This document shows, piece after piece, positions 3,401 through 62,714 of a DNA stretch of 64,000 bases. The stretch covers positions 362,041-426,040 of the forward strand of contig JAKLGJ010000001.1 in assembly GCA_022710715.1 (NCBI GenBank). Direction: 5' to 3'. The stretch's first letter is position 1, and every line of letters begins with the position of its first letter. This stretch comes from Candidatus Omnitrophota bacterium (GTDB lineage Bacteria > Omnitrophota > Gorgyraeia > Gygaellales > Profunditerraquicolaceae). Made by a program: the position numbers and the translations under genes. The notes under the pieces are model-generated. The model saw nothing but the letters and a program-made list of their open reading frames with translations, was not told the origin of the DNA and made no database searches.

Positions 3401-4192
3401 ATGGGAAAAATTACCGACGCTTTGAAGAAAGCCACTGAAGAACGCATGACCCGTCTGGAAAAGCTCGATTCCCGGGACGAGGTCAAATACCAGTTTATCG
3501 CCCAGAAGACCGTCGATTCCAAGATCGACCCGCGCATCGTGGCGTTTTATGAGCCGGCCTCGCCGGTTGCCGAGCAATACCGCATACTGCGCACCAATAT
3601 TCTGGCTCTGGGCACCAACAAAATACTCAAAACCGTGGCCGTGACCAGCTCGATCCACAGCGAAGGTAAGACCATTTCCTGTATTAACTTCGCTATCTCC
3701 ATGGCCCAGGATTTGAACAAAAAGAAGATTTTATTGATCGACGCGGATATGCGCCGCGGCCGGATAAAGAGTTATTTAGGGATCAATACCGAACTGGGAT
3801 TATCCGATCTTCTGGCGGATAAAACCACCACCGAAGAGGAATTCATCAGTATCGGCGGTATTGAAAACCTCACGGTGCTGCCCTGCGGCAAATACCCGAA
3901 TAACCCGGCGGAACTTCTGGGCTCGATGAAATTTCGCAATCTTTTAAGCTTATTGAAGGAACGCTACGATTTTATCATCATCGATTGCCCGCCGATCATC
4001 CCGGTCACCGACGCTAATATCATCGGTCCTTTGACCGACGGCGTGGTCATGGCGGTGCAGGCAGGCAGAACTCAACGCGGGGTAGTCAAAAACAGCGAAG
4101 CCATCTTGAAACAGGCAAATACCAAGCTCCTGGGATACATCATTACCAACGTGCAATACCATATCCCGGCTTATATCTATCGTTACTTGTAA
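3401..4192 (+). CDS. BY-family protein tyrosine autokinase (EpsG/CpsD-like)
   Basis: Walker A SSIHSEGKT, Walker A' LLIDADMRRGR and Walker B DFIIIDCPP. C-terminal tyrosine cluster YHIPAYIYRYL. Confidence 0.8.
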   Translation: MGKITDALKKATEERMTRLEKLDSRDEVKYQFIAQKTVDSKIDPRIVAFYEPASPVAEQYRILRTNILALGTNKILKTVAVTSSIHSEGKTISCINFAISMAQDLNKKKILLIDADMRRGRIKSYLGINTELGLSDLLADKTTTEEEFISIGGIENLTVLPCGKYPNNPAELLGSMKFRNLLSLLKERYDFIIIDCPPIIPVTDANIIGPLTDGVVMAVQAGRTQRGVVKNSEAILKQANTKLLGYIITNVQYHIPAYIYRYL

Positions 4193-5583: not shown

Positions 5584-6177
5584 ATGACGAATAAACTTAA
5601 AGCAATCGCGGAATTGAGCAAACGGGACGAAGATCGTTTCAAACGGCTGTATGAACTTATCGCCAAAGGCGTGGATATCGTCGATCCTTTTACCACTTTT
5701 ATCGCCGAGGGCGTAAAAATAGGCAAAGGGACTACAATTTATCCTCTGACGGTGATCGAAGAAGATGTAATCATCGGCAAGAACTGCAAGATCGGGCCGT
5801 TCGCGCGCATCCGGCCGCATGTCCGGCTCAAAGATGAAGTGGTAGTGGGCAATTTTGTGGAAGTCAACCGCTCGACCATGGAAAAAGGCGCCAAAGCCAA
5901 ACATCTGACGTATCTGGGCGACACTACCGTCGGAGAAAAAGCCAATATCGGCGCCGGGACCATCGTGGCCAATTACGACGGCAAAGAAAAGCATAAGACT
6001 CTGGTCAAAAAAGGCGCATTCATCGGCAGTGGATCGATCTTAGTCGCTCCGGTAACGGTAGGCAGGAATGCCATGACCGGAGCCGGCGCAGTGGTTACCC
6101 GTAATCATAATGTTCCGGACAACTGTGTGGTGGTAGGAATTCCAGCCCGCGTATTCAAAAAAGGAGAGAAGAAATAA
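5584..6177 (+). CDS. hexapeptide-repeat acetyltransferase matching the C-terminal domain of GlmU only
   Basis: Aligns along its whole length to the E. coli GlmU C-terminal domain (NFVE..K...GKG.KA.HLTYLGD..IG...NIGAGTI..NYDG..K.KT.....FIGS...LVAPVT.G......AG..VTRN). No nucleotidyltransferase domain is present. Confidence 0.75.
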
Positions 6178-7481
6178 TGAACACCTACGAGCAACTCAAA
6201 TCCAAGATCAAAGATAAATCCGCGCAAGTTTGTATCGTCGGATTAGGTTATGTCGGCCTGCCTCTGGCAGTGGAATTTGCCAAAAAAGGCTATTTTGTCT
6301 ACGGTTACGACACTGATCCGCACCGCATCGAGAAACTGCGCACCGGCGAGAAATTCATCGTGGACGTGGATCCTAAAGAAGTCCTGGAATTGATGAAGAA
6401 CAACCGCTTCGTTCCGACCACAGACGACACGGTGATCAAAGATTCCGACGCGATCATCATCGCCGTGCCTACGCCGCTGCGTAAGGTCAAATTCCCGGAT
6501 GTTTCCTATGTGGTCAGCGCTTCTACTACCGTGAAAAAGAACATGCGCAAGGGGCAGTTGATCATCCTGGAAAGCACTTCTTATACTACGACTACCCGTA
6601 ATGTCACCCTTCCCATCCTGAAGAAATCCGGACTCAAGGAAGAACGCGATTTCTTCCTTTGTTTTTCTCCGGAGCGGGTCAATCCCGGGGATAAGAAATT
6701 CCCGGTGATCAAGATACCCAAAGCAGTGGGAGGGATGTCCGAACAGTCCACGGAATTAGCTTTCATGCTTTATTCGGTGATCATGGAAAAAGTATTCAAA
6801 GTTTCCAGCCCGGAAGTAGCGGAAACCTCGAAACTTCTGGAAAATACCTTTCGCCTGGTGAACATCGCTTTGATCAGCGAATTCGCCATCCTGTGCAATA
6901 AGCTGGGGATCAGCATCTGGGAAGTCATCGAATGCGCCAAGACCAAGCCCTTCGGGTTCATGCCGTTCTATCCCGGCCCGGGCATCGGCGGCCATTGCAT
7001 TCCCTGCGATCCGGTATTCCTTTCCTGGAAGGCTAAGAAGCTGGGCTACAAGACCAAAATGATCGATCTGGCATTGGAGATGAACCGCTACATGCCTAAA
7101 TATACGGTAGAGAGAGTCGTGGAGCTTCTGGCGTCGAAAAAGAAGCCGATCGAAAAAGCCAATATTCTGATCCTGGGCGTAACCTATAAGAAAGACGTCA
7201 AAGATCTGCGTGAATCTCCGGCTCTGGAGATCATCGAGCATTTCAAGCATAAAGCAGCCAAGGTCAGCTTCCACGATTCAATGATCCCTTACATCAAGAT
7301 CGACGGGATCAATATGGAAGGTACAGCCATTACGCCGGCGAACTTGAAGAAGTTCGACTGCGTGGTGCTGATCACCGACCACTCGGATGTGGATTACAGC
7401 TTCATCCAGAAGCACGCCAGACTCATCTTTGACGCGCGCAACGTGTATAAGGAAAAACACAGCAACGTAGTTAAACTTTAG
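6177..7481 (+). CDS. nucleotide-sugar dehydrogenase (UDP-GlcNAc/UDP-ManNAc 6-dehydrogenase, WbpA/TviB/WecC-like)
   Basis: N-terminal Rossmann motif VCIVGLGYVGLPLA and catalytic GGHCIPCDP. Length of 434 aa is typical for the family. Confidence 0.85.
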   Translation: MNTYEQLKSKIKDKSAQVCIVGLGYVGLPLAVEFAKKGYFVYGYDTDPHRIEKLRTGEKFIVDVDPKEVLELMKNNRFVPTTDDTVIKDSDAIIIAVPTPLRKVKFPDVSYVVSASTTVKKNMRKGQLIILESTSYTTTTRNVTLPILKKSGLKEERDFFLCFSPERVNPGDKKFPVIKIPKAVGGMSEQSTELAFMLYSVIMEKVFKVSSPEVAETSKLLENTFRLVNIALISEFAILCNKLGISIWEVIECAKTKPFGFMPFYPGPGIGGHCIPCDPVFLSWKAKKLGYKTKMIDLALEMNRYMPKYTVERVVELLASKKKPIEKANILILGVTYKKDVKDLRESPALEIIEHFKHKAAKVSFHDSMIPYIKIDGINMEGTAITPANLKKFDCVVLITDHSDVDYSFIQKHARLIFDARNVYKEKHSNVVKL

Positions 7482-7516
7482 TCATTGCGAGCCCCGAAGG
7501 GGCGAAGCAATCTTAA
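7481..7516. repeat. 36-bp palindromic repeat element, copy 1 (intergenic)
   Basis: gtcattgcgagccccgaaggggcgaagcaatcttaa is identical to 8240-8275. It contains the hairpin gcccc-gaa-ggggc flanked by ttgc/gcaa. Confidence 0.8.
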
Positions 7517-7530
7517 TAAAAGGAGTTCAC

Positions 7531-8532
7531 ATGCGTTTTCTCGTCACCGGCGGCGCCGGTTTCATCGGTTCCCATATCACCGACAAATTACTTAAAGACG
7601 GCCATTTTGTGCGCGTCCTGGATAATTTTTCTTCGGGTAAAGAAGAGAATCTGGAGTATGCTAAAGGCTACCCGGCCAACTTCGAGTTGATGCGCGGCGA
7701 CATCTGCGACAAGAATACCTGTTTGCAGGCGACTAAAGGCGTGGATGCGGTCTGCCATCAGGCGGCTTTGCGCAGCGTGCCTAAATCCATGACCATCCCG
7801 CACGAATATAATCGCGTGAATATCGACGGCACTCTGAATTTGCTCGAAGCCTGCCGCGAGAATAAGATCAAGCGTTTAGCTATGGCCTCATCCAGCTCGG
7901 TGTACGGCGATGTAACAAAATTCCCGGAAAAAGAAACCTTTTATCCGGAGCTGATCTCGCCTTATGCTTTGAGCAAATTGACTGACGAATACTATTGCCG
8001 CATCTTCTCCGAACATTTCGGGGTAGAAACGGTTTGCCTGCGCTATTTTAACGTATTCGGCCCGCGTCAGGCCCTGGATGACGAATATGCCGTGGTCATC
8101 CCAAAGTTCATTCACTGCGTGTTGAATGATCAGCAGCCGCCGATATTTGGCACCGGCAAGCAGTCCCGCGATTTCACCTATATCGACAACGTGGTCCAGG
8201 CGAATTACTTGTCTTTGACCAAAGATCTGTCTCTTTCCCGTCATTGCGAGCCCCGAAGGGGCGAAGCAATCTTAAAGGGGAAGGTCTTTCATGGCGTTTT
8301 CAACGTCGCCAACGGAAAAGATACTACAGTACTGCAGATTGTAGTCCTGTTGAACAAGATACTGGGAAAGAACATTCAGCCGAACTTCCTGCCGGTTCGC
8401 GCAGGAGACGTATTCCGCACCAATGCGGATATATCCAAGATAAAGAAAGCCCTGGGTTTCAAGCCCCAGGTTGGTTTCGAAGAAGGATTACGCAAGACAG
8501 TGGAGTGGTTTAAAGCTAAGTGGAATAAGTAA
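7531..8532 (+). CDS. NAD-dependent nucleotide-sugar epimerase/dehydratase (WbpP/TviC-like) carrying an in-frame repeat insertion
   Basis: LVTGGAGFIGSH Rossmann motif and YALSK catalytic Y..K. RBS AAGGAG is present. Residues SRHCEPRRGEAIL are encoded by the 36-bp repeat. Confidence 0.8.
   Translation: MRFLVTGGAGFIGSHITDKLLKDGHFVRVLDNFSSGKEENLEYAKGYPANFELMRGDICDKNTCLQATKGVDAVCHQAALRSVPKSMTIPHEYNRVNIDGTLNLLEACRENKIKRLAMASSSSVYGDVTKFPEKETFYPELISPYALSKLTDEYYCRIFSEHFGVETVCLRYFNVFGPRQALDDEYAVVIPKFIHCVLNDQQPPIFGTGKQSRDFTYIDNVVQANYLSLTKDLSLSRHCEPRRGEAILKGKVFHGVFNVANGKDTTVLQIVVLLNKILGKNIQPNFLPVRAGDVFRTNADISKIKKALGFKPQVGFEEGLRKTVEWFKAKWNK
8240..8275. repeat. 36-bp palindromic repeat element, copy 2 (in-frame inside the epimerase CDS)
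   Basis: Identical to 7481-7516. Its 36 bp preserve the reading frame of the epimerase. Confidence 0.8.
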
Positions 8533-8585: not shown

Positions 8586-8909
8586 ATGAAATCATCTTTT
8601 ACTCTAAGCAGATTATTGCCCCTGTTTATTCTTTTATTGATACTTCCGGGCTGTAAGCTCGGCGGCGGAGGTGGTGGCGGCGGCAGTTCTGCAGCCGGCA
8701 GTCCCGGCGCCGGGATCATCAGCGATATGCAGATGGTCAGCACGCAAGAGCTGACGACACAAAACGACAACCTGACACTTACCGAGAACTTCACCAATCA
8801 GTCTGCGCCGATCAACACCGCAGTCATTCCTGAACCGGCAACCATGGGGTTGCTGTTAGGCGGCGCAGCTTTGATTTTCATCAAAAATAATCGAGCGAAG
8901 GAGCAATAA
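8586..8909 (+). CDS. small lipoprotein with a C-terminal PEP-CTERM sorting signal
   Basis: Lipobox LILPGC followed by a G8 run. C-terminus VIPEPATMGLLLGGAALIFIKNNRAKEQ is PEP plus TM helix plus basic tail. An alternative ATG at 8579 is better placed to the AGGAGG RBS but gives only a featureless 25-aa ORF. Confidence 0.7.
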   Translation: MKSSFTLSRLLPLFILLLILPGCKLGGGGGGGGSSAAGSPGAGIISDMQMVSTQELTTQNDNLTLTENFTNQSAPINTAVIPEPATMGLLLGGAALIFIKNNRAKEQ

Positions 8910-36355: not shown

Positions 36356-37501
36356 ATGAATTTTCTTTTTCCATATATGGCTCGCTGGAAGAGCGTTAAC
36401 TGGACGAGGTATCACCAGATTTTCACAGAACTGGCCAGGGAAGGCCATAATGTTCATGTTATTCAGACTCCGCCTCAGGTTTCCAGAGAGACAAATTTCC
36501 AGGAAATCGAGGTGGAGATTCCCGAGAAACTTTTTCTGCACGAAATCGGAGTGGATCCCTTCATCTGGCAGGCGCAGCTACCTTTGAATAAGCTTATAAA
36601 AAAGGGATATTACAGTTATAAGTGTATCAAGGAAGTCAAGCGTATGGTTAAGGAATACGCTATTGATGTGCTCTTTTTATATAATATTCCTCAATTACCG
36701 CTTATGGATGTAAAAGGTTGTGTTAAGATCTTTGATTTTGCAGATGATTATACCGCGATGTTGAAGCAGGAGTTAGGGCCATTGTCTAATCCATTGGTAA
36801 TGAAGATAGGTCAATCAATGCTGAACAGCATGGTAGAAAAAAGCGATCTGACTTTAGCCGTATCCAAAGTTTTGGCTGATTCTATACAGAGTAAAGATCC
36901 GAGAAAAATCCATGTGCTGCCCAATGGGGTTGACTTAGATCCTCTTCGGATAGGAACCGGTAAAGACATCAGGGCGAAGTATAAAAAACCGATTATCGGT
37001 TTTATCGGATCATTCGAGTATTTTATAGATTTTGAATTAATTTTGGAGGGAGCGCGTAGATTTTTGGAATACACTTTTTTGTTGGTCGGTGGAGGGAGAG
37101 ATTTCGCTCGGGTTAAGCAGCAGGTGGAGAAAGACGGTTTGAACAATGTAGTTCTGACTGGTGGAGTTCCGCATGCAGACATCTATAAATATATTGATGC
37201 GATGGACGTTTGTTTGAATATTTTTAAGCCTATCAGGATTTCGCATGCCGCTTGTCCAATCAAGCTGTTTGAGTATCTTTCGATGAAGAAGCCTGTTATC
37301 AGTACACGGTTGGAAGAACTGAAGTATATCGATCAGAATTTCTTGTTTTATGCGGATAATGCAGACGAATTAGTCAAAGCAGTAAATACGATTTTGCAAG
37401 ACAAAGCAGACACTCTAAGAAAGATTGAAGTTGGTTTTCGTCTTGTTGAAAATAACTATCAATGGTCGGAGATTGCCTCGCGATTGCTTGATATGTTGTA
37501 A
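36356..37501 (+). CDS. glycosyltransferase (GT4-like)
   Basis: Two Rossmann-like halves and a C-terminal GT1/4-type domain. Confidence 0.65.
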   Translation: MNFLFPYMARWKSVNWTRYHQIFTELAREGHNVHVIQTPPQVSRETNFQEIEVEIPEKLFLHEIGVDPFIWQAQLPLNKLIKKGYYSYKCIKEVKRMVKEYAIDVLFLYNIPQLPLMDVKGCVKIFDFADDYTAMLKQELGPLSNPLVMKIGQSMLNSMVEKSDLTLAVSKVLADSIQSKDPRKIHVLPNGVDLDPLRIGTGKDIRAKYKKPIIGFIGSFEYFIDFELILEGARRFLEYTFLLVGGGRDFARVKQQVEKDGLNNVVLTGGVPHADIYKYIDAMDVCLNIFKPIRISHAACPIKLFEYLSMKKPVISTRLEELKYIDQNFLFYADNADELVKAVNTILQDKADTLRKIEVGFRLVENNYQWSEIASRLLDML

Positions 37502-37542
37502 CCTCGTGCAATGACTCGAGTATTTTTATTAAGAAGGGATAT

Positions 37543-40210: not shown

Positions 40211-40294
40211 TTTGCAATGTTAAGCTTTTTTATTGCATTACGCTAAATGTTTTCTGGCGTTCCTTAACAATATTGCGTTCGATTTTTTACGTTA

Positions 40295-40323
40295 TTGGCA
40301 AGATTGACTTTTTATGTTATAGT
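40295..40323 (+). promoter_or_regulatory. sigma70-like promoter of the short beta-helix gene
   Basis: TTGGCA, 17-nt spacer, TATAGT. Its downstream part is duplicated exactly at 42300-42328. Confidence 0.5.
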
Positions 40324-40374
40324 CTAGTAGAAGAAAAAAATTAGCCAGATCATTATCATAATTCTTGCAGAACT

Positions 40375-42180
40375 ATGAAAACAATCAAAATCTTGCTTAT
40401 AGTGCTGGTAACCCAGTTGTTGTTCTTGTCTTCATTTGTTTATGCAGCCACATACTATGTAGATGGGGCTGTGGCTACGGATAGCGGCAATGGAAGTCAA
40501 TCTTCCCCCAAGAAATATATTAAATCCGGTATCGCTCTTATGTCTGGGGGAGATACGCTTATTATAGCTGACGGTACATACACAGGTACGCAGAATAATA
40601 TGTGTACCGATGGCGGGTGGGATTGGACGGGTATTCCTGATGGATCGTCAGGGGCATACACTACCATTAAAGCAGCTAATGACTTTGGTGTCATTATTGA
40701 TGGTGGCGGGACACTTACTGGATTATATCCTAACGGATTGAGCTACGCGGTCATACAGGGGATAATTTTCCAGAATGGCGGTTCCAATGTATATCTTACT
40801 CATTGCGATCATGTGAAAATTATTAAGTGCGGTGGTGTTGATGCTGCCGCTGGGAATGTATGTAATTTTAATTCAGCTGACGGTGATTATATTTTGTTTG
40901 AAGATTGCTTTTCGTGGGGGAGGGGTAGATATAAATTTCTTATAGGAGGCGGATCAACGTATACTGTGTTGCGGCGGTGTGTAGGGCGATATGACTATCA
41001 CGATGCCGAAAATCCTCATGGCGTTTTTTCCTTTTATGGCGGCTCTACTGCGGATTGCTATGTTCAAAATTGCATTGCTATTGATGGTCTTGCTGTGTCC
41101 GGGTCAAATACACAAGCTCTTTATGCTCCGAACGGATCGACTCGGTTGACTTTTGATTCTTGTATTGTTCTGAATAATGGCGGACCTGGAAACTTTTTTG
41201 AGTCATCTGCAACCTCACCAACCTTAAAAAATAGCGTTATTTGGTATGGGACTGCAACTGATACTGCTGCCTCGCAATCATACACGCCGCCCTCAAGCGA
41301 GACTGTTATTGGTTGTACTCTAGGTAGATTCCCTTATGGGATTATTGCACAAGGGACAACAGTTACCAATTCTATATTTTATGGAATGACACACGATGGT
41401 ATTTCCTGGGCAACTAACGATTATTGTAATTTATACGGTAACGGAAATGCTTATTCAAGCACTACTGGTGGATCGCATAATACATTAGTTAATCCACTTG
41501 TCAACGGTTTGACATATTTACCGCGTATAGAATCTGGATCGACACTTAAAACAGCAGGTTCTTCTGGTGGTCAGATCGGTGCGCAAATAGAATATAAATT
41601 GGGAACCTCAGGATCTCTCTACGGAGAAACCGGATGGAATACGTTAACCAGTGATTCCTTATGGCCATTTCCGAATGAAGATGTGATTCGGGAAAGAATG
41701 CGGGTATATAATCTACATGATGTTAATGGTGCTCGTGGTTTTTGCGCTGACGGCCAGACCCTCACCAAATACATCTGGGAATATTTAGGGAATACCATAC
41801 CTGTGGAAATCTATGAGAGCGGGCGAGATTCCGCGGAAAGTACTTCTGGTAATAATGCCAATAGTGTGAGTTCAGTTGAATCTCCCATTTCCAATCCAGT
41901 TGTAGGTGGTAGTAACAGTGGAGGAGGAGGTGGTGGTGGAAGTTGTTTTATAGCTTCAGCTGTTTATGGCGCAAACGCCAATGAAACGAAAACTTTAAGA
42001 GAGTTTAGAGATGGTTATTTATTAAAATCAAAACTTGGGAATGTTTTAGTAAAGTTATACTACATATCTACTCCTCCAATAGCGCATTATTTAGAAAAAA
42101 GAATTTGGGCGAAGAATGTAATGCGTAAAGTATTAAATCCTCTCGTTGCGTTGGTTAATCAAGAATTAAATAAACGATAG
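40375..42180 (+). CDS. secreted right-handed parallel beta-helix (pectin-lyase-fold) protein with a Gly-run + Cys-initiated conserved C-terminal module
   Basis: Signal peptide, then [45 protein letters not shown] typical of beta-helix proteins. G7-S-CFIASAVYG... C-terminal domain. Confidence 0.8.
   Translation: MKTIKILLIVLVTQLLFLSSFVYAATYYVDGAVATDSGNGSQSSPKKYIKSGIALMSGGDTLIIADGTYTGTQNNMCTDGGWDWTGIPDGSSGAYTTIKAANDFGVIIDGGGTLTGLYPNGLSYAVIQGIIFQNGGSNVYLTHCDHVKIIKCGGVDAAAGNVCNFNSADGDYILFEDCFSWGRGRYKFLIGGGSTYTVLRRCVGRYDYHDAENPHGVFSFYGGSTADCYVQNCIAIDGLAVSGSNTQALYAPNGSTRLTFDSCIVLNNGGPGNFFESSATSPTLKNSVIWYGTATDTAASQSYTPPSSETVIGCTLGRFPYGIIAQGTTVTNSIFYGMTHDGISWATNDYCNLYGNGNAYSSTTGGSHNTLVNPLVNGLTYLPRIESGSTLKTAGSSGGQIGAQIEYKLGTSGSLYGETGWNTLTSDSLWPFPNEDVIRERMRVYNLHDVNGARGFCADGQTLTKYIWEYLGNTIPVEIYESGRDSAESTSGNNANSVSSVESPISNPVVGGSNSGGGGGGGSCFIASAVYGANANETKTLREFRDGYLLKSKLGNVLVKLYYISTPPIAHYLEKRIWAKNVMRKVLNPLVALVNQELNKR
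41944..42177 (+). other. conserved C-terminal module (short paralog)
   Basis: CFIASAVYGA...LREFRDGYLL...VKLYYISTPPIAHYLEKR...LNPLVALV aligns with 51812-52042. Confidence 0.6.
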
Positions 42181-42299
42181 CAATATCTTTCAAGATCAAT
42201 CCTAAAGTAAATTTCCCGCCAAAACAAATTTTAATTAAAACATTGTTATAGAATAACTTACAAACATAAATAATTTGTTTAAAAATATTCAACGTGATA

Positions 42300-42328
42300 T
42301 TGACAAGATTAACTTTTTATGTTATAGT
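42300..42328 (+). promoter_or_regulatory. sigma70-like promoter of the giant beta-helix gene (duplicate)
   Basis: TTGACA, 17-nt spacer, TATAGT. Sequence is identical to 40310 onward. Confidence 0.5.
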
Positions 42329-42379
42329 CTAGTAGAAGAAAAAAATTAGCCAGATCATTATCATAATTCTTGCAGAACT

Positions 42380-45300
42380 ATGAAAACAATCAAAATCTTG
42401 CTTATAGTGCTGGTAACCCAGTTGTTGTTCTTGTCTTCATTTGTTTATGCAGCCACATACTATGTAGATGGGGCTGTGGCTACGGATAGCGGCAATGGAA
42501 GTCAATCTTCCCCCAAGAAATATATTAAATCCGGTATCGCTCTTATGTCTGGGGGAGATACGCTTATTATAGCTGACGGTACATACACAGGTACGCAGAA
42601 TAATATGTGTACCGATGGCGGGTGGGATTGGACGGGTATTCCTGATGGATCGTCAGGGGCATACACTACCATTAAAGCAGCTAATGACTTTGGTGTCATT
42701 ATTGATGGTGGCGGGACACTTACTGGATTATATCCTAACGGATTGAGCTACGCGGTCATACAGGGGATAATTTTTCAAAATGGCGGTTCCAATGTATATC
42801 TTACTAATTGCGACCATGTAAAAATTTTAAAATGCGCTGGAGTTGATGCTGCCGCTGGGAATGTGTGTAATTTTAATTCAGCTGACGGTGATTATATTTT
42901 GTTTGAAGATTGCTTTTCTTGGGGGAGAGGCCGGTATAAGTTTCTGATTGGAGGAGGTTCAACATATACTATCTTGCGAAGATGTGTAGGGCGATATGAT
43001 TATCATGATGCCGAGAATCCTCACGGAGTTTTTTCTTTTTATGGGGGTTCTTCGACTGATTGTTACGTGCAAAATTGTATTGCTGTTGATGGTCTTGCTG
43101 CTTCTGGTTATGGAACTACCGCATTGTATGCTCCTAATGGGTCCACAAGATTAACTTTTGATTCTTGTATTGTTCTGAATAATGGAGGTGCGGGCAATTT
43201 CTTTGAATCCGGAGCGACATCCCCAACATTGAAGAATAGCGTTATTTGGTATGGCACTTCAGCAGGTACGGCGGCTTCTCAATCATATAGTGAACCATCT
43301 AATGAAACCGTTATAAATTGCACTCTTGGTAGATTCCCATATGGAATTATATCAGCCCATACGAGCGTATCTAACAGTATATTCTATGGCATGACGAGTG
43401 ATGCGATCTCTTGGTCTACAAATAATTATTGTAATTTGTATGGCAATGGTAATAACTATTCAAGCACAACCGGAGGAGTAAATAATGTTGTGTATTCGCC
43501 ACTAACCAATGGTTTAAGATACCTCCCTAGAATAGAATCCAGTTCAACTCTTAAGACCGCTGGTTCATCTGGTGGTCAAATTGGAGCACAGATTATTTAT
43601 CGTCTGGGTGTTTCGGGTACTCTTTACGGAGAGACTGGGTGGAATACGCTAACTGATGAGAATCTATGGCCATTTCCGAATGAAGATGTGATTCGAGAAA
43701 AAATGCGTGTATATAATTTGCATGATGTTAATGGTACTCGCGGTTTTTGCGCGGATGGCCAGACCCTCACCAAGTACATCTGGGAATATTTAGGGAATAC
43801 CATCCCTCCGGAAATTTATGGTGCGCCGGCGACGCCGACGATCAGCACGAGTTCTTTAGCCGGGGGGACAACCGGGACAGCGTACAGCCAGACTTTAGCG
43901 GTTTCCGGCGGGACTTCGCCTTATTCCTGGACCGTTGCTTCCGGTTCGTTGCCTGCGGGCTTGAGCCTGAATATTTCTACCGGAGTTATCTCCGGCACGC
44001 CTTCGGCTGTCGGGACTTCGAGCTTTACCGTGCAGGTGATGGATGCCGAGACGGTGACTGATACCCAGGCGCTTTCTATCGTGGTCAGCGCTCCGGATTT
44101 GACCGCGCCCACGATTTCCTCAATCGCTGCGGGAAGTATTACCGGTTCAGGCGCTGCGATCACCTGGACGACCAATGAAGCGGCTACTTCGCGGGTGGAA
44201 TACGGCACGAGCGTTGCTTATGGTTCACAGACTACTTTGGATAGTACCTTGGTTACCAGCCATTCGGTGAATCTTACCGGCTTGAGCGCTAATACTACCT
44301 ATCATTACCGGGTGAAGAGCCAGGATGCGGCGGCTAATGAAACAGTATCCGCGGACAATTCTTTTACTACCGGTGGTTCTACGGATTACGTCAGCCCCAG
44401 CCCGGACGTAAACTTAACTGATTTTGAATCGGTTCCCGAAGAAGGGACAATGACCGTGAATATTCCGGTTGATCCTTCCACGGCTACTTCTGCAGCGATC
44501 ATTTTAACTATTTATGACGCGGAGAATCCCAATGAAGGCAACTTCTATATCAACGGCAACGGAGAGACTGCGATTCCGTACGGCGATTCTTATGATTCCG
44601 TAGATCATACTTTTGCCCCGATCACGATTAACAAGTCTTATCTGGTGCAGGGCGATAATACCATCAGGTTTACCCATTTAGCTACCAGCGGATTTATTGT
44701 CAGGGATGTGACTATTCGTTTGACCTTTACCGGGTCAAGCGATACTACCGCGCCTTCAGCCGTCAGCACCCTGGCTGCTGCTACCGGCACGAACCGGGGG
44801 ACGGTGAATCTGACCTGGACCTCGCCCGGGGATGATGCTGCTACCGGCACAGCCACCAGCTATACCATCAAGTATTCCACTTCCCAGATCACCAATGACG
44901 CGCAGTTTACCGCGGCTACGGATGTGACCGGTGAACCCGCGCCGGCAGTAGCCGGGACTTCGCAATCGATGACGGTTACCGGTTTGACTCCGGGGACGAC
45001 TTATTATTTCGCGATCAAGACCACAGATGAAGCCGGCAATACCGCCACGATCTCCAATTCTCCCGGCGCGCAGGCTAAGCCCAATGTTCTTCCGGTTTTA
45101 GCTGCGATCGGCGCCAAGAGCGTGAATGAGAATGCCGCGCTTTCCTTTACTATCAGCGCTACTGACGCGGATGGCGACGCGATCACTTATTCTGCCAGCG
45201 GTTTGCCTTCCGGAGCCACGTTCACTGCCGGTACCCGGACATTTGCCTGGACGCCTGCGTACACCCAGGCGGGTTCCTATTCCGTAACCTTTACCGCCAC

Positions 45301-48300
45301 TGATACCCAGTCAGCCAGCGATTCCGAAACCGTCACTATTACCGTAGCTAATGTCAACCGCGCGCCGGTATTGGCGGCGATCGGGGCAAAGAGCGGGTCG
45401 GAAAATACTTTATTGACCTTTACTTTGAGCGCTACGGATGCTGACAGCGATGCTTTGACCTATTCCTGCACTAATCTGCCTTCCGGATCGACTTTGAATG
45501 AATCGACCGGCGTGTTCAGCTGGACCCCGTCATATACCCAGGCAGCCACGTACGGGGCGGTGCATTTCGTGGTTTCCGACGGTAGTCTGACGGATACCGA
45601 GAATATCACCATTACCATCGCTAATACCAACCGCGCGCCGGTGCTTGATGCTATCGGTAATAAGTCGGTCAATGAAAACAGCGCTTTGAGTTTTGACCTT
45701 AATGCCACGGATGCGGATGATGATATCGTAGCTTACAGCGCTTCAGGTTTACCTGCCGGCGCGGTTTTCGACGCGGGGAACTTCAGCTGGACTCCGACGT
45801 ACTCCCAAGCAGGCACATACACCGTGACTTTTACCGCGGATGATCTTAGCGGCGGGACTGATTCCGAGACGATCACTATCACTGTGGGCAATCTGAACCG
45901 CGTGCCGGTGTTAGCGGCTATCGGGAATAAGGCCGTGGATGAGAATGCGCTGTTGAGTTTTGTGATCAGCGCTACTGATGCGGATAGCGATACCTTGACT
46001 TATTCCGCCACGAATTTGCCTTCGGGCGCTACTTTTACCGCCGGGACCAGGACTTTCGCCTGGACGCCGGGCGGCACGCAGGCCGGTAATTACAGTGTAT
46101 CTTTCAGCGTGACCGATCCTAACGGCGGCATCGATTCCGAGACGATCACTATTACCGTAGGCGATGTGAATGCTCCTCCGGTTCTGGCAGCTATCGGCGC
46201 TAAATCGGTGAATGAGAATGCGGCATTGAGCTTTGTGATCAGCGCTACTGATGGTGATGGCGACGCGTTGACCTATGCTGCCGCTAATCTGCCTTCCGGC
46301 GCTACTTTTACCGCCGGGACCAGGACTTTCGCCTGGACGCCGTCGTATACCCAGTCCGGTTCGTATACCGTGACTTTCAGCGTGGATGACGGTCTGGGCG
46401 GGACGGATTCCGAAGCGGTGGTGATTACTGTGGCTAATATGAATCGCGCGCCGGTGCTGGGAGCGGTGGGGAACAAAGCCGTGAATGAGAATGCGGCGTT
46501 GAGCTTTACGTTGAGCGCTACCGATGCGGACAGCGATACTTTAGTTTATTCTGCCACAGGTTTACCTGTCGGCGCTACTTTAGACAGCGCGACCGGGTCT
46601 TTTGCCTGGACGCCGACCTACGCGCAGTCGGGCAACTACAGCGTGACCTTCAGTGTCAGCGACGGCAACGGCGGGACGGATTCGGAAACCATCGGTATCG
46701 CGGTGAATAATGTCAACCGGGTGCCGGTGCTGGACGCGGTAGGCGCGAAATCGGTAGATGAAGGGGTAGCTTTGACTTTTACTTTGAACGCTGCTGACGC
46801 GGATAGCGATACTCTGACTTACGCGGCTGCTAATTTGCCTTCCGGCGCCACGTTTACCGCCGGCACGCGCACTTTCGCCTGGACGCCGGGCGGCACGCAA
46901 TCCGGAACTTACAATGTGACTTTCAGCGTGGATGACGGCAACGGCGGCACAGATTCGGAAACAATCGCGATTACCGTAAATAATGTCAATGTCGCGCCGG
47001 TGTTGAGCGCGATCGGCGCCAAGAGTGTGAATGAGAACGCGGCATTGAGTTTTGTGATCAGCGCTACGGATAGCGATGGAGACGCGATAACCTGCGCGGC
47101 TTCCAATCTACCCGCAGGCGCTACTTTTACCGCCGGGACCAGGACATTCGCCTGGACGCCGTCGTATACACAGTCCGGATCTTACACCGTGACTTTCAGC
47201 GTGGATGACGGTTTGGGCGGGACGGATTCCGAAGCGGTGGCGATTACGGTGGCTAATGTGAATCGCGTTCCGGTATTGGCGGCTGTGGGCAACAAAAACG
47301 TGGATGAAAACGTGGCGTTGAGTTTCAGCTTGAGCGCCACTGACGCAGATAGCGATACTTTGACATATTCCGGTGCCGGGATGCCTGTGGGCGCGACTTT
47401 TAATAGTGCCAACGGAGCGTTCAGCTGGACGCCGACCTATACCCAGGCCGGAAGCTATAGCGTAACTTTCAGCGCCAGCGACGGTAACGGCGGCGAGGAT
47501 TCCGAGGCTATCACTATTACTGTCGCGAATGTAAATCGCGTTCCGGTGTTGGCGGCAATCGGGGCAAAGAGCGTGGACGAGGGAACGGGTTTGAGCTTTA
47601 CGGTCAGCGCGACGGATGCGGATAACGATACCTTGACTTATACGGCTGCGGATGTGCCGGCTGGAGCGAGTTTCACTGCCGGAACCAGGACGTTCAGCTG
47701 GACTCCCAGTTGTCTGCAGTCGGGTGTGTATACGGTGACTTTCAGCGTGGATGACGGCAATGGCGGCACAGATTCCGAAGCGGTGGTTATCAGCGTGAAC
47801 AACGTGAATTGTCCGCCGGTGTTAGCGGCGATCGGCGCAAAGAGCGTTAACGAGAACGCGCAGTTGCAGTTTACGGTCAGCGCCACGGATCCGGAAGGCG
47901 ACAGCTTAACTTATTCCGCGGCGGGATTACCGGCGGGAGCGACTTTTGCGGGTTCGACATTTACCTGGACGCCGTCATATAGTCAGGCGGGTTCTGCTAC
48001 AGTGACGATTACTGCCGACGACGGTAACGGCGGCACGGATTCCGAAGCTGTGGTTATCAGCGTGGCGGATGTGAACCGCTCGCCGATCCTGGATCTGACC
48101 GGCAATAAGACGGTGAATGAGAACAGCGTTTTGAGTTTTGATATCAACGCGACTGATCCGGATGGCGACGTGGTGGCTTATAGCGCGACCGGTGTTCCTG
48201 CGGGCGCGGTATTCAGCGCGGGCAGCTTTAGCTGGACACCGTCATATACCCAGGCCGGTTCCTATACTGTGGTCTTTACCGCGGATGATCTCAATGGCGG

Positions 48301-51300
48301 GGAAGATTCGGAAACGATCACCATTACCGTGAATAATGTGAATCGCGCGCCGGTGCTGGCGGCGATCGGGAATAAGAGCGTGAATGAAGCCGCCGCTCTG
48401 GTTTTCAGCGTCAGCTCAACCGACGCAGACGGCCAGGCTTTGACTTTGTCCGCTGCGAACCTGCCTGCGGGCGCTACTTTTAACGCCGGGACCGGGGTGT
48501 TCAGCTGGACTCCTTCGTATTCCCAGGCCGGCGCATTTGCCGGGGTGCATTTCGAAGTTACCGACGGCGCGGCCACGGATAGCGAAGATATTACCATTAC
48601 GGTGAGCAATGTGAACCGGGAACCGGTTCTGGCCGCCATCGGCGCTAAAACGGTGAATGAAAACGTGCAATTGCAGTTTACCGGTTCCGCGACCGATGCG
48701 GACGGCGATGTTTTGACTTACAGCGCTACCGGATTGCCGGCAGGAGCGACCTTCGCGGGTTCGACTTTTACCTGGACGCCGACGTACGCGCAGTCCGGGA
48801 ATTTCACCGTGACCATCAGCGTGGCGGATACTAACGGCGGGACGGATTCCGAAGCGGTGACGATTTCCGTAGGTAACGTGAACCGGCCGCCGGTATTGGC
48901 TGCGGTGGGGAATAAGACTGTAGCCGAGAATGCGGCGTTAGGATTTACGGTCAACGCTACGGATCCGGACGGTGATGCAGTGACGCTATCTGCAGCGAAT
49001 CTGCCTTCCGGCGCGACGTTTAACGCTGCGACGGGCGCGTTCAGCTGGACTCCGGGTTACGCGCAAGCCGGGGCATACGCGACCGTGCAATTCGCAGCCA
49101 GTGATGGCTCTTTGAGTGATGCGGAAACCATTACGATCACTGTTACAAACACTGATACCACACCGGTTTTAGCGGCTATCGGAAACAAGACGGTGACGGA
49201 AAATGCGGCGCTGTCGTTTACGGTCAGCGCTGTTGACGTAGATGGCGACGCTTTGACGTATGCTGCGGCCGGATTGCCGGCCGGGGCTTCGTTCGCCAGC
49301 CAGGCATTTAACTGGACCCCGGGTTATGATCAGGCGGGTACCTATACGGTGACATTCTCGGTGGAGGATGGGGCGGGCAATAGCGATTCCGAAGCGGTTA
49401 CGATTACGGTGAGCAATGTTAACCGCGCGCCGGCGATGGCTGCGATCGGGAATAAGTCGGTGGTGGCTAAGTCCGAACTGACCTTTACCGTCAGCGCTAC
49501 TGATGCCGACGGCGACGCGGTGACTTATGCGGCTTCAGGTTTGTCGGCCGGTGCGACGTTTAATGCCGATTCCGGTGTGTTCAGCTGGATCCCGACCAAT
49601 GCCGACGCCGGGAATCATACCATTACTTTCAGCGCGACGGATGGTTTAGCTTCCGCTACCGAGGCGATCACCGTGGCAGTGGATGTCCTGGATGAAGAGC
49701 CGCCGTATCTGGATTCATTGAATCCGGAAGAGGGCGAAGTGCAGGTTTCGCGCGATTCCGACGTGTTCTTCTACCTGAAGGACGCGCTTAAGGGGGTCAA
49801 TAAGGATACGATCAATTTGAGCATCAAGCGCGAAGGCGACGCCGCGGCGACCAATGTTATCGTCAACGGGGTAAATCAGCTCTCATCGTATCCGAATAAC
49901 GTGATCCTCCAGAGCAGCAGCGGCAATTACGCGGTAAAGTACGATCCTCCGACCAGCCGCGACTATCGCTTTAAATACGAGCAGAAGATCACGGTGACAG
50001 TCAGCGGCCGCGACCTGGCCGGCAATCAGCTGGCGCCGTACACCTATGATTTCACTACCGCCATGCTGCTTAAGGGGCCGAACAAGAGGGTGAGTACCAC
50101 CACTACGACTACGGCTGAACCTGCTCCGGCGCCGGCAGGCGGCGTGGATGGCGCGGTGCAGCCGCCGGCTGCGACCCAGGTGGTGAATAAAGATAATTCC
50201 TGTCTGGTGATGAATAAATCCAGCAACAAAGTGTATATGGTCTGGCAGGACGACGCCGGACAGATCTGGTTCAATAAATCCGAGGACCGGGGGGTGACTT
50301 TTATCCAGGATACCCAGTTGACCGGCGCTTTGACCGGAACGAACCGCAATCCGCAGATGGCCGTGGATGATCCTGGGAACTTGTATGTGATCTGGGAGAA
50401 CGTGCAGACGGATAATTCGTCGGATCTGTATTTTGCCCGGCTGGATAATAACAGCGCTGCCTGGCAGATCGCGGTGATCCCGGCGGATATCGCGCTGGGC
50501 GTTGCGGCGAATCAGGCGCAGCCGTCTTTAGACGTAACTTCGAGCGGCACGGTGGTGATCGCCTGGGTCAACGGCGCTTCCGGTGTATATTATGCCCGGT
50601 CGACGGATCAGGGCGATAGTTTATGGAATCTGACTGCCGCGCAGACCAAACGGGTGGACGACGGGACTGCGGCGGCGTTTGCTTATCCGGAAATCAAGTT
50701 GAGCGTGAATAGTCAGAATAAGTATGTGGTCTGGAGCGCGGAGAAAAATAGCGAGCGCAATATTTATTTCAACGCTTTGAATAATCAGAATAATCGGGTT
50801 TACGCCCAGGATATTCAGATCAACGACGCGAATAGCGGCACTGCGGCGGACCGGCCGAGTCTGGCCATGCGGCCGGAAGTCGGCGGCGGCGGGCAGAAGG
50901 TGGGTATTTGCGCGGCCTGGGAAAATACCGGCGCTGACGGCGATACGGATATTTATTTCGACAAATCGGTTACCGGCGAGGTGTGGGGCGCGGATATTCA
51001 GGTCAACGAAGACGCGCAGACGCCGCAGGCGCAGAAAGAGCCGGCGCTGGCCATGGATGCCGACGGAAGTATTTTTGCGGTGTGGAGCGATTACCGCAAC
51101 GGCGAATGGGATATTTATTACGCCAATTGCCTGGATAACGGGTTGACTTTCAAGACGAATATTCTGGTGAATGCCGATTCCGGCACCGCGGTGCAGGATA
51201 AACCTTCCTTGTACTTGAGCGCGGACGGCAACCACGTGTGCATCTCCTGGACGGATTATCGTGACGGTAACGGAGCGATCTATTTTAACCGCAACTCCTA

Positions 51301-52045: not shown

Positions 52046-52125
52046 AGGGGACAGGTCCACCCAAAACGGCTCGTCGAGAAAATCGGACAGATGTGTCCCC
52101 TTTGAGATTTGCTGTGTCCCCTTTT
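52044..52125 (+). repeat. ~80-nt structured gene-end element, copy A, directly after the stop codon of the giant gene
   Basis: aggggacaggtccaccc...ggacagatgtgtcccct...tgtgtcccctttt. Its reverse complement recurs at 62636-62714. Confidence 0.8.
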
Positions 52126-52717: not shown

Positions 52718-55700
52718 ATGACAAAAGAAGATCGGTTCTTTCCCCGTATTCTATTTTGTACGGCAATTCTTGCTGTTGTTTCATTTATTCCTGCCTATAT
52801 TTTTTCTGTTTCAGCCAATGAATCTGCCACGTCTTCCTGCCAGCATAATCAAGGAACTTGTTCCAAAGAGCCTCATTGTCCTGGAAAACCCAGTTATCCC
52901 AACCCTCCACCCGGTTGTCCCCAAAAGAAGTATTGCAGTCTTTATCCTATTGCGTTAAATGTAACAGTCATTAGTAATGCCAAGGTTGGAGACCGCATAC
53001 CTGATATCCTTAATGAGGGTGGCCCGGGCAATCTGGGTTGGCTTAGCTGGAATGGTAATAATAGCACTGCGATGTTAGTCAGGAGCTTAATCCCGCCTGG
53101 CGCAAGCTTATTGTACAGAAATCCTTATGATGAGCGCGATCATGTAGTTTCTCAAGGAGACTGGATCAGGGGAATGCCGGGTGATCATAATGGCAGCGCA
53201 ATACGGATTGCTCTAAATATGTTAAAAACCCAGCACGTAACTATACCCGTTTGGGATACTGTTAAAAAGCAGAAGGGAGAACTTCTGTATCATGTATCTG
53301 GATTCGCGAAGGTGCAGATAATTGATTTCAATTTAAGCAAAGACAAACGTATATCGGCGATTTATCTTGGCAAGGTGACGTGTGGTGACGAACAAAACCA
53401 ATCTCCAGTTGCTCATGCCGGAGTTGACCAGCAGGTAGCAATTGGCAGTACTGTTACTTTAGACGCCTCGGCTTCTTCTGATCCCGATGGTGATAATCTT
53501 ACCTATAAATGGGCTATTCTGACCAAACCAGATGAGAGTAGCGCTGTGCTTGTGAATGCTGATCAAGCTAATCCTACTTTCATCGCCGATAAATCCGGAC
53601 AATATACTGTCCAGCTCATTGTTAATGACGGTAAAGTCGATAGCCAACCGGCTGCAGTTACAATAAGCACTATCAATCGTCAGCCGGTTGCTAACGCAGG
53701 AGAGAATGTTTCTGCGCAAGTTGGCTCTGAAGTGAATTTGGATGGCAGCGGGTCTAGTGACCCAGATGGCGATCTCTTAAGCTACCTATGGAGTATTACA
53801 ACCAAGCCCCAGAACAGTAACGCGGTATTAGATCATACCGATATTGTAAAACCTTCCTTTGTTGCTGATGTAGGAGGGCAGTATACCGTTCAACTTATCG
53901 TTAACGACGGTAAACTCGACAGTGCTCCTGCTGTGGCAGTTATCAATACCTTAAATCAAGCGCCAATAGCAAATGCAGGCGCTGATGTCAATGTATTTGT
54001 CGGCGCGCTCATTAAACTGGATGGGAGCAATTCCAATGATCCCGATGGGGATCAATTAACCTATTCATGGAGTATTGTAAGCCAACCCGATGGAAGCAAT
54101 GCTGTGTTGCTGGATCCGGCTACAGCTACGCCGTCATTAACTCCCGATAAAGCCGGAACGTATGTAGTGCAATTGATCGTAAGCGACGGACAATTGGACA
54201 GTGTAGCGACAATAATCCGCGTAATCACGGAAAACCGCTCTCCGGCAGCTAATGCCGGGCAGGATATGAGCGTTAATCTCGGGCAGGTGGTGATTCTGGA
54301 TGGAAGCGCCTCCAGTGATCCTGACGGCGATCCGTTGACTTATATATGGAGTATTACGAATAAACCAGAGGGAAGTGGTACTGCTCTTGCCAATGCAGCT
54401 ACTTCAGCACCATCAATGACTCCCGATTTTATTGGGACATACGATGTGCAATTAATAGTTAATGATGGTAAAGTTGATAGCTCGACTTCAGTTGTGCATG
54501 TTACAGCTATTTCCGTCAATAAACCGCCCGAAGTTCATGCCGGTGACGATGTGACAATTACTTTCTCAGTCGATAGAGCAAATCTCAACGGTTCCGCAAG
54601 CGATGATGGGTTACCGTCAGGCGGTACATTAACAGTCTTGTGGAGTGAGGTAAGCGGGCCAGGCGCGGTTACTTTTGAAGACGCGACGTCTTTAATGACC
54701 ACAGCTAGTTTTTCTCAGGCTGGGACCTATGTTTTAAGGCTAACAGCCAGCGATTCTGTCCTTTCAACCAGCAGCGATATGACTGTAACGGTTACTATGG
54801 CTCCTCGGTGCCTTGCTGATCGCGATATACCGCCTCCGAGCGTCGATGGAAGCGGATCATGGGGATGGATCAACCAGGCTTCTTTGATAAATGCTCGTTC
54901 TGAACATACCGCGACACTTTTGCCGTCCGGAAAGGTCCTTGTTGTCGGGAGTAGTTCGAATGGAGGGGCGACTGCAGAGTTGTATGATCCGGCGACCCAA
55001 CGCTGGACTGAAGTAGCGTCTATGCATTATCCCCGTTTTGCGCATACTGCGACATTGCTGCCTGATGGGAAGGTATTGATTACAGGTGGATGGTCAGGTT
55101 CGAATTCGTATGCTTCTGCGGAAGTTTATGACCCTGCAACGAACACGTGGGCGGACGCCGCGCCGATGAACTCTGCTCGAAGCTGGCATACGGCGAATCT
55201 GTTGAGCACGGGTAAGGTTCTGGTTGTTGGGGGGAACGCAGGGACGGCAGCAGAACTTTACGATCCCGCGACGGATTCATGGGCTTCCGCCGGTTCTCTC
55301 AGCTTGAGCCATGTAGGTCATTCAGCAACAACATTAGCGAACGGCGATGTGCTTGTCATGGGAGGCCGTCCCGTGAATAATGCGACCGAGATCTATCATG
55401 TCGCGAGTAATTCGTGGGAACGTTTGAGCGATGCTCCCGTGGCCTGTGCTTTCTACAGGGCGGTGCTCCTGCCTGGCGGAAGGGTCCTGGTTACCGGCGG
55501 GTATAACGATTCCCAGAGATTGAAGGCCGTGCAGCTTTTCGATCCCTCGGTGAACCAGTGGACACGGGTCAAGGACATGAGTGTCGAGCGTGCCGATCAT
55601 GCTATCGCTATTCTTCCAGACGGGAAGGTGATGGTCGGTGGGGGGTACACCAATACGGATATTACCGATACTGTTGAGTTGTATGACGTTGTTGCCGATC

Positions 55701-62635: not shown

Positions 62636-62714
62636 AAAGGGGACACAGCAAATTGCGAAGGGGACACATCTGTCCGATTTTCTCGACGAGCCCAAAAGGG
62701 TGGACCTGTCCCCT
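62636..62714 (-). repeat. ~80-nt structured gene-end element, copy B (inverted), directly after the stop codon of the minus-strand response-regulator gene
   Basis: The reverse complement matches 52046-52125 apart from a flipped loop (aaaac/ttttg) and a few substitutions. Confidence 0.8.

Follow-up and report, generated by a model that had tools for sequence, protein, structure and literature searches.

The described systems closest to the repeat analyzed here are the CGTC-REP superfamily and the Ssn/SRM system (SRM, Ssn-related motif). Members of the CGTC-REP superfamily have a CGTC/TGTC (or CCTC) tag, a stem that starts with the pairs A-T and T-A, and a short tail, and they form dimers; the superfamily includes the Neisseria repeat dRS3 and the Rickettsia palindromic elements (RPE) RPE-4 and RPE-6, has in-frame intragenic copies in several species, and had no known dedicated transposase in 2013 (Di Nocera 2013, PMC3733652). 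The Neisseria protein SsnA, a single-domain GIY-YIG protein of 94 residues, binds the NTS hairpin (CGTCATTCCCGCGMAVGCGGGAATCYRG) solely as single-stranded DNA, cuts a few nucleotides upstream of it and does not bind RNA; the three bases before the palindrome (GTC) are the most critical for cutting, and the C after the palindrome is the most critical for binding (Chenal 2025, PMC11893778). Homologs of Ssn as a rule have motifs of their own, 20-50 nt long, on their flanks, and the NTS-ssnA-NTS layout has been likened to an insertion sequence, the mobilization of which was not demonstrated (PMC11893778). Here we describe a repeat of this kind in a 64,000-nucleotide stretch of DNA from Candidatus Omnitrophota bacterium (contig JAKLGJ010000001.1 of assembly GCA_022710715.1, positions 362,041 to 426,040), which as a whole is called the window below. 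A 36-nt hairpin occurs in it twice, once between the genes for a UDP-sugar dehydrogenase and an epimerase and once in frame within the epimerase gene. The element is a member of the CGTC-REP/SRM-Ssn kind, and we consider it likely that both 36-mers are units of a dispersed, Ssn-linked CGTC-REP/SRM hairpin family, inserted after the split from the relative with the nearest epimerase ortholog. The genes and repeat copies concerned are the following.

6177-7481, plus strand: upstream gene, UDP-sugar dehydrogenase, 434 residues.
7481-7516, plus strand: copy 1, intergenic hairpin repeat, absent from the relative's loci L121 and L122; tag (A)GTC 7480-7483, outer stem ATTGC 7484-7488 paired with GCAAT 7507-7511, inner hairpin GCCCC-GAA-GGGGC 7491-7503, trailing C 7512, tail TTAA 7513-7516.
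7531-8532, plus strand: host gene, UDP-GlcNAc/UDP-GalNAc 4-epimerase-like protein of the short-chain dehydrogenase/reductase type, 333 residues (assigned from homology, PDB matches and a structural model).
8240-8275, plus strand: copy 2, in-frame hairpin repeat in the epimerase gene, absent from loci L121-L123; tag CGTC 8239-8242, outer stem 8243-8247 paired with 8266-8270, internal loop GA 8248-8249 versus GAA 8263-8265, inner stem 8250-8254 paired with 8258-8262, GAA triloop 8255-8257, C 8271, TTAA 8272-8275.
37482-37515, minus strand: possible third, decayed unit, a weak candidate (GATTGCTTG...CTCGTGCAATGAC on the plus strand).

The window has the 36-mer, GTCATTGCGAGCCCCGAAGGGGCGAAGCAATCTTAA, at exactly two places, both on the plus strand, with copy 2 beginning 759 bp downstream of copy 1; the chance expectation for such a sequence in the window is zero, even with three mismatches tolerated. 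The two copies are identical at 36/36 positions, and identity ends precisely at either border. As a single strand, the 36-mer forms a hairpin in which a 2x3 internal loop separates an outer from an inner stem, each of 5 bp, with a GAA triloop at the tip; it has a free energy of -8.1 kcal/mol as DNA and -15.1 kcal/mol as RNA, and with z-scores of about -2.5 to -3.2 for the plus strand and -1.9 for the complementary DNA strand. A preliminary description of this DNA, made from the letters alone, had reported two identical palindromic copies at these positions, and both the identity and the fold agree with it. The element is a hairpin-forming inverted repeat within the 20-50 nt given for SRMs, and the (H)GTC and 3' C of SRMs are present in copy 2 (CGTC-ATTGC...GCAAT-C) as well as in copy 1 (AGTC-...-C).

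Copy 1 occupies the space between the dehydrogenase open reading frame (ORF) and the epimerase ATG at 7531. The dehydrogenase TAG stop codon takes its final base from the first G of this copy, the end of which lies 14 nt from the ATG, with an AAGGAG ribosome-binding site just 3' of it. Copy 2 lies within the epimerase ORF and keeps its frame (..SLS-RHCEPRRGEAIL-KGK..), encoding the 12 residues RHCEPRRGEAIL at about 237-248. The in-frame insert of 12 codons proposed in the preliminary description thus stands, as does its position between the NYLSLTKD and VFNVANGKDTTV segments, but the 12-residue string given for it was offset by one codon, taking an S from the flank and dropping the final L.

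Some other identities for the repeat were tried and rejected: a CRISPR repeat, because there are only two copies, 723 bp apart; an intrinsic terminator, because a T-run is absent after the hairpin; and an integron attC site, because the attC consensus is a different one. A scan of the whole window against Rfam gave no match at gathering thresholds, and a permissive scan around the site gave only a chance sub-threshold match. Literature searches with the arm sequences or the encoded peptides returned unrelated primer matches or nothing.

The nearest epimerase ortholog (P0002) has 93% amino acid identity, 84-92% DNA identity and the same gene order (loci L121-L123), and these loci contain neither repeat copy. 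The spacer between dehydrogenase and epimerase measures 9 nt in this relative versus 49 nt in the window (40 nt shorter), and the epimerase loop of the relative is 30 nt shorter than that of the window. The metagenome sample that yielded the source contig also yielded one of the relative's repeat-free contigs, so that a single sample contains both allele types, occupied and empty. Excising exactly 36 nt from the epimerase gene leaves ..KDLSLSQGKVFHG.., an ordinary loop for the epimerase family, and many orthologs have a minimal loop of 13 residues, ILAATTPGIKHEV. The 12 residues are an insertion relative to the orthologs. The epimerase ORF is otherwise intact and retains the conserved core and the invariant residues of the family, with matches to PDB 6dnt (1.3e-69) and to WbgU and WbpP (about 1e-60); the alignment with 6dnt has a gap of 20 residues exactly at the insert. 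In an AlphaFold model of the epimerase (mean predicted local distance difference test score, pLDDT, 78; predicted template modeling score, pTM, 0.82), residues 231-253 form a coil between a helix (218-230) and a strand (254-258), and pLDDT falls below 50 at residues 236-249, so the insert is predicted to sit in a disordered surface loop. Ortholog alignment and structure both bear out the loop insertion that had been proposed from the DNA.

By an opposite interpretation, the 12 residues are an ancestral loop or a functional, adaptive insertion that resembles the intergenic copy only secondarily. The loop is indeed hypervariable across the family, and the ortholog P0025 has the same HCEPRRGEAI peptide in the same loop; in its DNA, however, the unit lies at a different loop position and is preceded by two half-units. 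With the nearest relative lacking the 12 residues, the nucleotides identical to the intergenic copy at 36/36 positions, low model confidence at the segment and its absence from solved homologs, we find this interpretation hardly credible. The insert is most probably a neutral passenger, and the locus provides a clean, datable case of a hairpin repeat that added 12 residues to an epimerase with an intact core. Copy 1 also left its mark on coding sequence: the dehydrogenase ends with CTT TAG in the window versus CTA TAA in the relative, and copy 1 rebuilt this stop codon. Removal of the 32-nt unit and one TTA from copy 1 yields CTT TAA, with the stop position as in the relative; copy 1 may involve a TTA duplication.

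The preliminary description had taken the 36-mer for a dispersed repeat, and this is borne out by other genomes, where the 29-nt core has more than 120 exact occurrences among the matches listed. The hosts belong to the Omnitrophota, Chloroflexota (Anaerolineae and others), Planctomycetota (Planctomycetia), Gemmatimonadota (Gemmatimonadales), Patescibacteria and Proteobacteria, and the ATTGCGAG-type family is present in at least six phyla, with an identical inner hairpin common to several of them. A metagenome scan for the exact 36-mer matched two unrelated contigs. When the flanks of the core are aligned, (C/T)GT precedes the C of CATTGC (YGT-C) and C(T/C)C follows GCAAT, and an inverted partner very often stands 6-40 nt further on (GAGATTGCTTCG...CTCGCAATGAC). 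In the anatomy of the ATTGCGAG subfamily, the (C/T)GTC tag is unpaired, the outer stem of ATTGC and GCAAT encloses a purine internal loop (GA/GAA) and a variable inner hairpin, and a C trails the stem. Viral contigs do not contain the exact core variant, but in them the generic pattern GTCATTGCGAG-N6-30-CGAAGCAATC is common (at least 170 units); 128 of the 170 interiors among the matches listed are distinct. At least three nested pairs can form in 50% of the interiors of the viral units listed versus 25% of shuffles, and GNA triloops (GAA, GCA, GTA) are frequent. Such enriched self-complementarity in diverse interiors indicates that the inner hairpin keeps its structure, not its sequence, with arms, tag and tail conserved. 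Unit lengths vary over a wide range across the family. Neighboring units are mostly arranged as tail-to-tail dimers with their tags outward (87/107 pairs among the matches listed).

Units are under-represented inside long open frames, where about 37% of them lie, versus about 75% of random positions. Intergenic units stand between co-directional genes in 148 cases, convergent genes in 18 and divergent genes in 6, at a median distance of 18-20 nt from the upstream stop when co-oriented. A preference for the space between unidirectional genes near the upstream stop, as for REPs (PMC3733652), would suit a functional RNA or DNA hairpin, such as an mRNA stabilizer, an attenuator or a device for translational coupling of dehydrogenase and epimerase, of which the in-gene copy would be a by-product; the stable RNA fold (-15.1 kcal/mol, z about -3) and the position of copy 1, 3' of a stop codon and 5' of the ribosome-binding site of the next co-directional gene, would suit it too. 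The close relative, however, has a 9-nt spacer and no hairpin, and the orientation of single units to their flanking genes is mixed, with no strong bias (46 antisense versus 31 sense). The lack of a T-run after the hairpin and of an Rfam match, together with the finding that SsnA does not bind RNA (PMC11893778), also speaks against such a role, which we judge unlikely.

Clustering of all ORFs in the loci that had been selected for units yielded a family of ~96-residue proteins encoded between a unit in plus and a unit in minus orientation, and this unit(+) - GIY-YIG - unit(-) layout holds for 5/6 of the GIY-YIG genes in these loci. The flanked protein, a candidate member of the Ssn clade (CDD cd10448), consists of a single GIY-YIG domain of about 95 residues (Pfam GIY-YIG only), with a sub-threshold match in NCBIfam and no relative in the PDB by sequence. 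For a reverse test, four homologs were picked regardless of repeats, from Gloeotrichia (Cyanobacteria), Thermoflexales, Dehalococcoidales and an Omnitrophota genome; all four genes have a unit upstream and an inverted unit downstream, about 0-60 nt from the gene. The repeat family is thus associated with GIY-YIG genes. On viral contigs, relatives of the flanked protein with 40-50% identity have other hairpins of like design on their flanks, among them the canonical CGTCATTCCCGCGAAAGCGGGAATCCAG, and on one viral contig (L248) the GIY-YIG gene is flanked by ATTGCGAG-type units; the flanked GIY-YIG proteins are likewise 40-50% identical to proteins flanked by canonical NTS.

Two of these genes have unusual surroundings. 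In an Omnitrophota genome (JAPLLX010000002.1; L283, 355-728), a unit - GIY-YIG - unit cassette lies inside the core ATP synthase operon between atpA and atpG, with the alpha and gamma genes on either side. In Gloeotrichia echinulata (CP170511.1; L280, 281-385), four minimal units of 24 nt, (C)GTCATTGCGAGGCACGAAGCAATC, stand in tandem with a period of 27 nt directly upstream of the GIY-YIG gene, and further units lie downstream.

A GIY-YIG partner also bears on the reading of the element as a classical GTAG REP/REPIN moved by a RAYT (IS200/IS605-like) transposase, or as an ordinary MITE, a miniature transposable element with terminal inverted repeats. The element is indeed short, palindromic and dispersed, often as inverted dimers, and in two Anaerolineae genomes the dimer lies inside longer MITE-like repeats with terminal inverted repeats of their own. 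The tag of the present family is (C/T)GTC, however, and not GTAG, the recurrent flanked gene encodes a GIY-YIG nuclease and not a Y1 transposase, and the unit has neither terminal inverted repeats nor a target-site duplication; this reading is very improbable. The parallel with GTAG REP/REPIN-RAYT systems is nevertheless close in layout, with a hairpin repeat and a small gene for a single-strand-specific nuclease flanked by its own repeats, and with inverted dimers. The differences lie in the enzyme and tag (HUH/Y1 and GTAG there, GIY-YIG and GTC in the ATTGCGAG family) and in enzyme-driven mobilization, which has not been demonstrated for Ssn.

The MITE-like repeats of the Anaerolineae are of two different kinds, about 135-175 bp long, each with the same unit dimer at its center; their own terminal inverted repeats are GTAACTGCCTACC.. 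and AGAGCTTGTCTTAAAA.., at loci L001/L015/L057/L081/L097/L102/L108 and L017/L043/L055/L087/L099/L111. In a further arrangement, 5' half-units (YGTCATTGCRAG and 10-15 nt more) are stacked in tandem immediately upstream of a full unit; orphan 3' halves were not seen. Such stacks were seen at L124 (about 3700-3790), in loop 2 of the epimerase orthologs L285 and L286, at L052 (about 5600), at L114 (about 1095-1144) and at L024, and they might be the scar of a process acting 5' of the tag. Among the viral loci, 27 (L127-L131, L143, L148, L151 and others) are related phage contigs with terminase, portal and capsid-like genes, where units lie in the gaps between structural genes and at their starts, as in the case of VIARSAATKQS, which forms the N-terminus of L128 7011-7442.

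Compared with NTS, the window element is likewise a 20-50-nt hairpin with an orienting, unpaired (C/T)GTC directly 5' of a palindrome starting with AT and with a C conserved directly 3' of it (NTS CGTCATTCCCGCG...CGGGAATC, window element CGTCATTGCGAG...GAAGCAATC), and both occur as dispersed single and paired copies and flank a gene for a single-domain GIY-YIG protein of ~95 residues on both sides. The outer stem, however, is ATTCC in NTS and ATTGC in the ATTGCGAG subfamily, whose stem has two tiers separated by a purine internal loop, the inner hairpin being hypervariable; and only 2% of NTS copies lie inside genes, whereas the ATTGCGAG family is repeatedly found there in frame. The main text of Chenal 2025 mentions neither the ATTGCGAG motif nor the Omnitrophota or Chloroflexota (PMC11893778), and the hosts found here also include Cyanobacteria.

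With the CGTC-REPs, the window element shares the CGTC/TGTC tag, the A-T and T-A pairs at the start of the stem (ATTGC/GCAAT), a short unpaired tail, frequent dimers and a mainly intergenic position downstream of genes with some in-frame copies. CGTC-1 to CGTC-4 have a continuous stem of 8-9 bp and a 4-5-nt loop, whereas the window element has 5 + 5 bp with an internal loop and a 3-nt loop; the tail is CCA there and CTC or CCC in the ATTGCGAG subfamily, in which triloops are common. The CGTC-REP families also form mostly head-to-head dimers; if "head" denotes the tagged end, the outward tags of the ATTGCGAG subfamily depart from this. RPE-4 and RPE-6 are similar in being short palindromic repeats that lie in frame at permissive gene positions; their host is Rickettsia, whereas the Omnitrophota are free-living or environmental, and the link runs through the shared CGTC superfamily alone. 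RPE-1 is much longer, about 100-150 bp.

The preliminary description had called the behavior of the repeat RPE-like. The label proves literally apt: the (C/T)GTC tag and the stem starting with AT are those of the CGTC-REP superfamily, and because that superfamily already includes RPE-4 and RPE-6, the likeness is more than an analogy (PMC3733652). The remark made there that in-frame proliferation is well known in Rickettsia and rare elsewhere needs a correction, as in-frame REP insertions are listed for several species and not for Rickettsia alone (Di Nocera 2013, PMC3733652), and the preliminary description had missed the link to GIY-YIG (Ssn-type) nucleases. Since the element belongs to a known kind and in-frame copies were already documented, the phenomenon itself is not new.

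How the two units reached this locus can be outlined as follows. The autonomous-looking form in other genomes is unit(+) - ssn gene - unit(-), and short tail-to-tail dimers and single units would be gene-less derivatives of this cassette. Units may spread through single-stranded intermediates with an Ssn-type enzyme or by single-strand processing. After the split from the relative, at roughly 90% DNA identity, one unit would have landed in the 9-nt spacer between dehydrogenase and epimerase, and an identical unit 759 bp downstream in the permissive surface loop of the epimerase. Three features presumably let copy 2 survive: its length of 36 nt is divisible by three, units of this family almost always have a sense strand free of stops, and the loop is structurally dispensable. 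Both copies have a TTAA tail beyond the family terminus GCAATC, a tail that occurs in 3/126 same-variant genomic copies among the matches listed; because they share this rare tail, the two window copies are each other's closest relatives, and probably one was templated from the other or both derive from a 36-nt genome-specific master sequence.

The same tail is an argument for a purely local duplication, in which template switching or break repair produced one copy from the other, with the hairpin as donor and with no dedicated enzyme. The 36/36 identity of the copies, the lack of a target-site duplication at copy 2 and the presence of just two perfect copies in ~73 kb agree with this. Yet at least one copy must have come from elsewhere, as neither is present in the relatives, and units of the family are scattered over many genomes and turn up independently in orthologous loops. 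Local duplication accounts for the second copy, not for the element, and as a full alternative we rate it as possible, though on the doubtful side.

Insertion of units from an Ssn-linked family remains the preferred reading, and a number of observations weigh against it. Copy 2 has no target-site duplication, and the TTAA tail common to both copies agrees equally well with local templated copying and with transposition. The source genome was covered over ~73 kb (the window and 9 kb upstream) for the counts of copies and ssn genes; it contains two perfect copies, one possibly decayed copy and no further perfect unit, and the 9 kb upstream of the window has neither unit nor ssn gene. The decayed candidate overlaps the stop codon of ORF 36356-37501 and has imperfect arms on both sides and an interior without a hairpin. 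The ~73 kb also contain no ssn/GIY-YIG gene, so that an active cognate nuclease in this genome is hypothetical, and none of the best 120 GIY-YIG homologs is on the 1.62-Mb source contig. Stem architecture is unlike that of the described CGTC families, and so, probably, is dimer orientation. The published SRM search sequence, HGTCWYN(0-2)YYVSBRHN(0-5)WNVSBRGN(0-2)RNCYNB, matches the canonical NTS control but none of 477 family units and neither window copy. Finally, we know of no experiment anywhere in which Ssn proteins mobilized their own motifs.

The abundant and widespread ATTGCGAG subfamily thus escapes the published SRM pattern, which is new, and it extends the Ssn/SRM (CGTC-REP) system to an overlooked subfamily and to phyla not previously discussed.

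In-frame units were also found in orthologs of the epimerase, all in sense orientation. In L124, two 5' half-units and the identical CCCCGAAGGGG unit lie in loop 2; the same loop has a long unit with a half-unit in L285, and in L286 two full units with one half-unit. In L287, a minimal unit of 26 nt lies in loop 1. Positions, variants and reading frames differ, so these insertions are independent of one another, and, to judge from the sequences, the same two epimerase loops have been colonized independently and repeatedly in Omnitrophota orthologs, which is also new. Outside the epimerases, a unit dimer lies inside a PheT gene (L022), between the N-terminal domain and the B3_4 domain. Of 255 unit variants, 86-95% have no stop codon in any given sense frame, versus ~63% for antisense frames; antisense frames are less often open because GCAATGAC contains TGA, and the rarity of stop codons in sense frames accounts for the sense bias of units in genes. 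Unit lengths have no bias toward multiples of three, which argues that selection filters the survivors inside genes. For the annotation of metagenome-assembled genomes, it should be noted that peptides such as HCE..EAI, VIAS..KQS, SLR..RSN, DCF..LAMT and LLR..RND flag repeats of this family and not real domains.

Across the epimerase orthologs P0001-P0120, loop 1 (after about residue 45) and loop 2 (after about residue 232) are often expanded, with peptides that resemble other short repeats in translation: GLSP..GTVP, SPLRGEGKGEG, NTQYSILNT/RYTLNAK, RTVDRGP and LGHWVTG. The first of these corresponds to the palindrome GGGACnGTCCC read in both orientations. In the Omnitrophota, short repeats in general seem to collect in these two loops; the check at the DNA level covered the ATTGCGAG-type cases.

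A bolder proposal, which we put forward tentatively and hold to be rather doubtful, is that the ATTGCGAG unit(+) - ssn - unit(-) cassette is an active, pan-phylum mobile element driven by its GIY-YIG protein and seeding in-frame peptides, with the epimerase loops as recurrent landing pads and the half-units as 5' cleavage scars. If true, it would mean a transposition chemistry based on a GIY-YIG single-strand nuclease, not yet demonstrated in bacteria, and in-frame insertions into permissive loops across Omnitrophota, Chloroflexota, Cyanobacteria and their phages.

The remaining observations concern the surroundings of the locus. Just 3' of the epimerase gene, a small ORF (8586-8909) that is conserved in the relative (L121) encodes a protein that starts like a lipoprotein, contains a poly-Gly stretch and ends in a PEP-CTERM-like C-terminus (PEPATMGLLLGGAALIFIKNNRAKEQ). 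The GC content is 33-42% at about 10000-44000 versus 47-58% on either side, with the drop beginning just downstream of the sugar-nucleotide genes, and this low-GC stretch may be a horizontally acquired glycan-synthesis island. A direct duplication with an offset of 2005 nt extends over 40293-43798; 40293-40592 and 42298-42597 are 99% identical over 300 nt, and the remaining matched segments 72-79%. At 45100-49650, in a GC-rich stretch, a unit of 273/267 nt is repeated in tandem at least 16 times with 60-77% identity, presumably encoding a surface protein with repetitive domains. An inverted repeat of 79 nt (90% complementary; 52046-52124 and 62636-62714) brackets an ORF of 3102 residues at 52718-62026.

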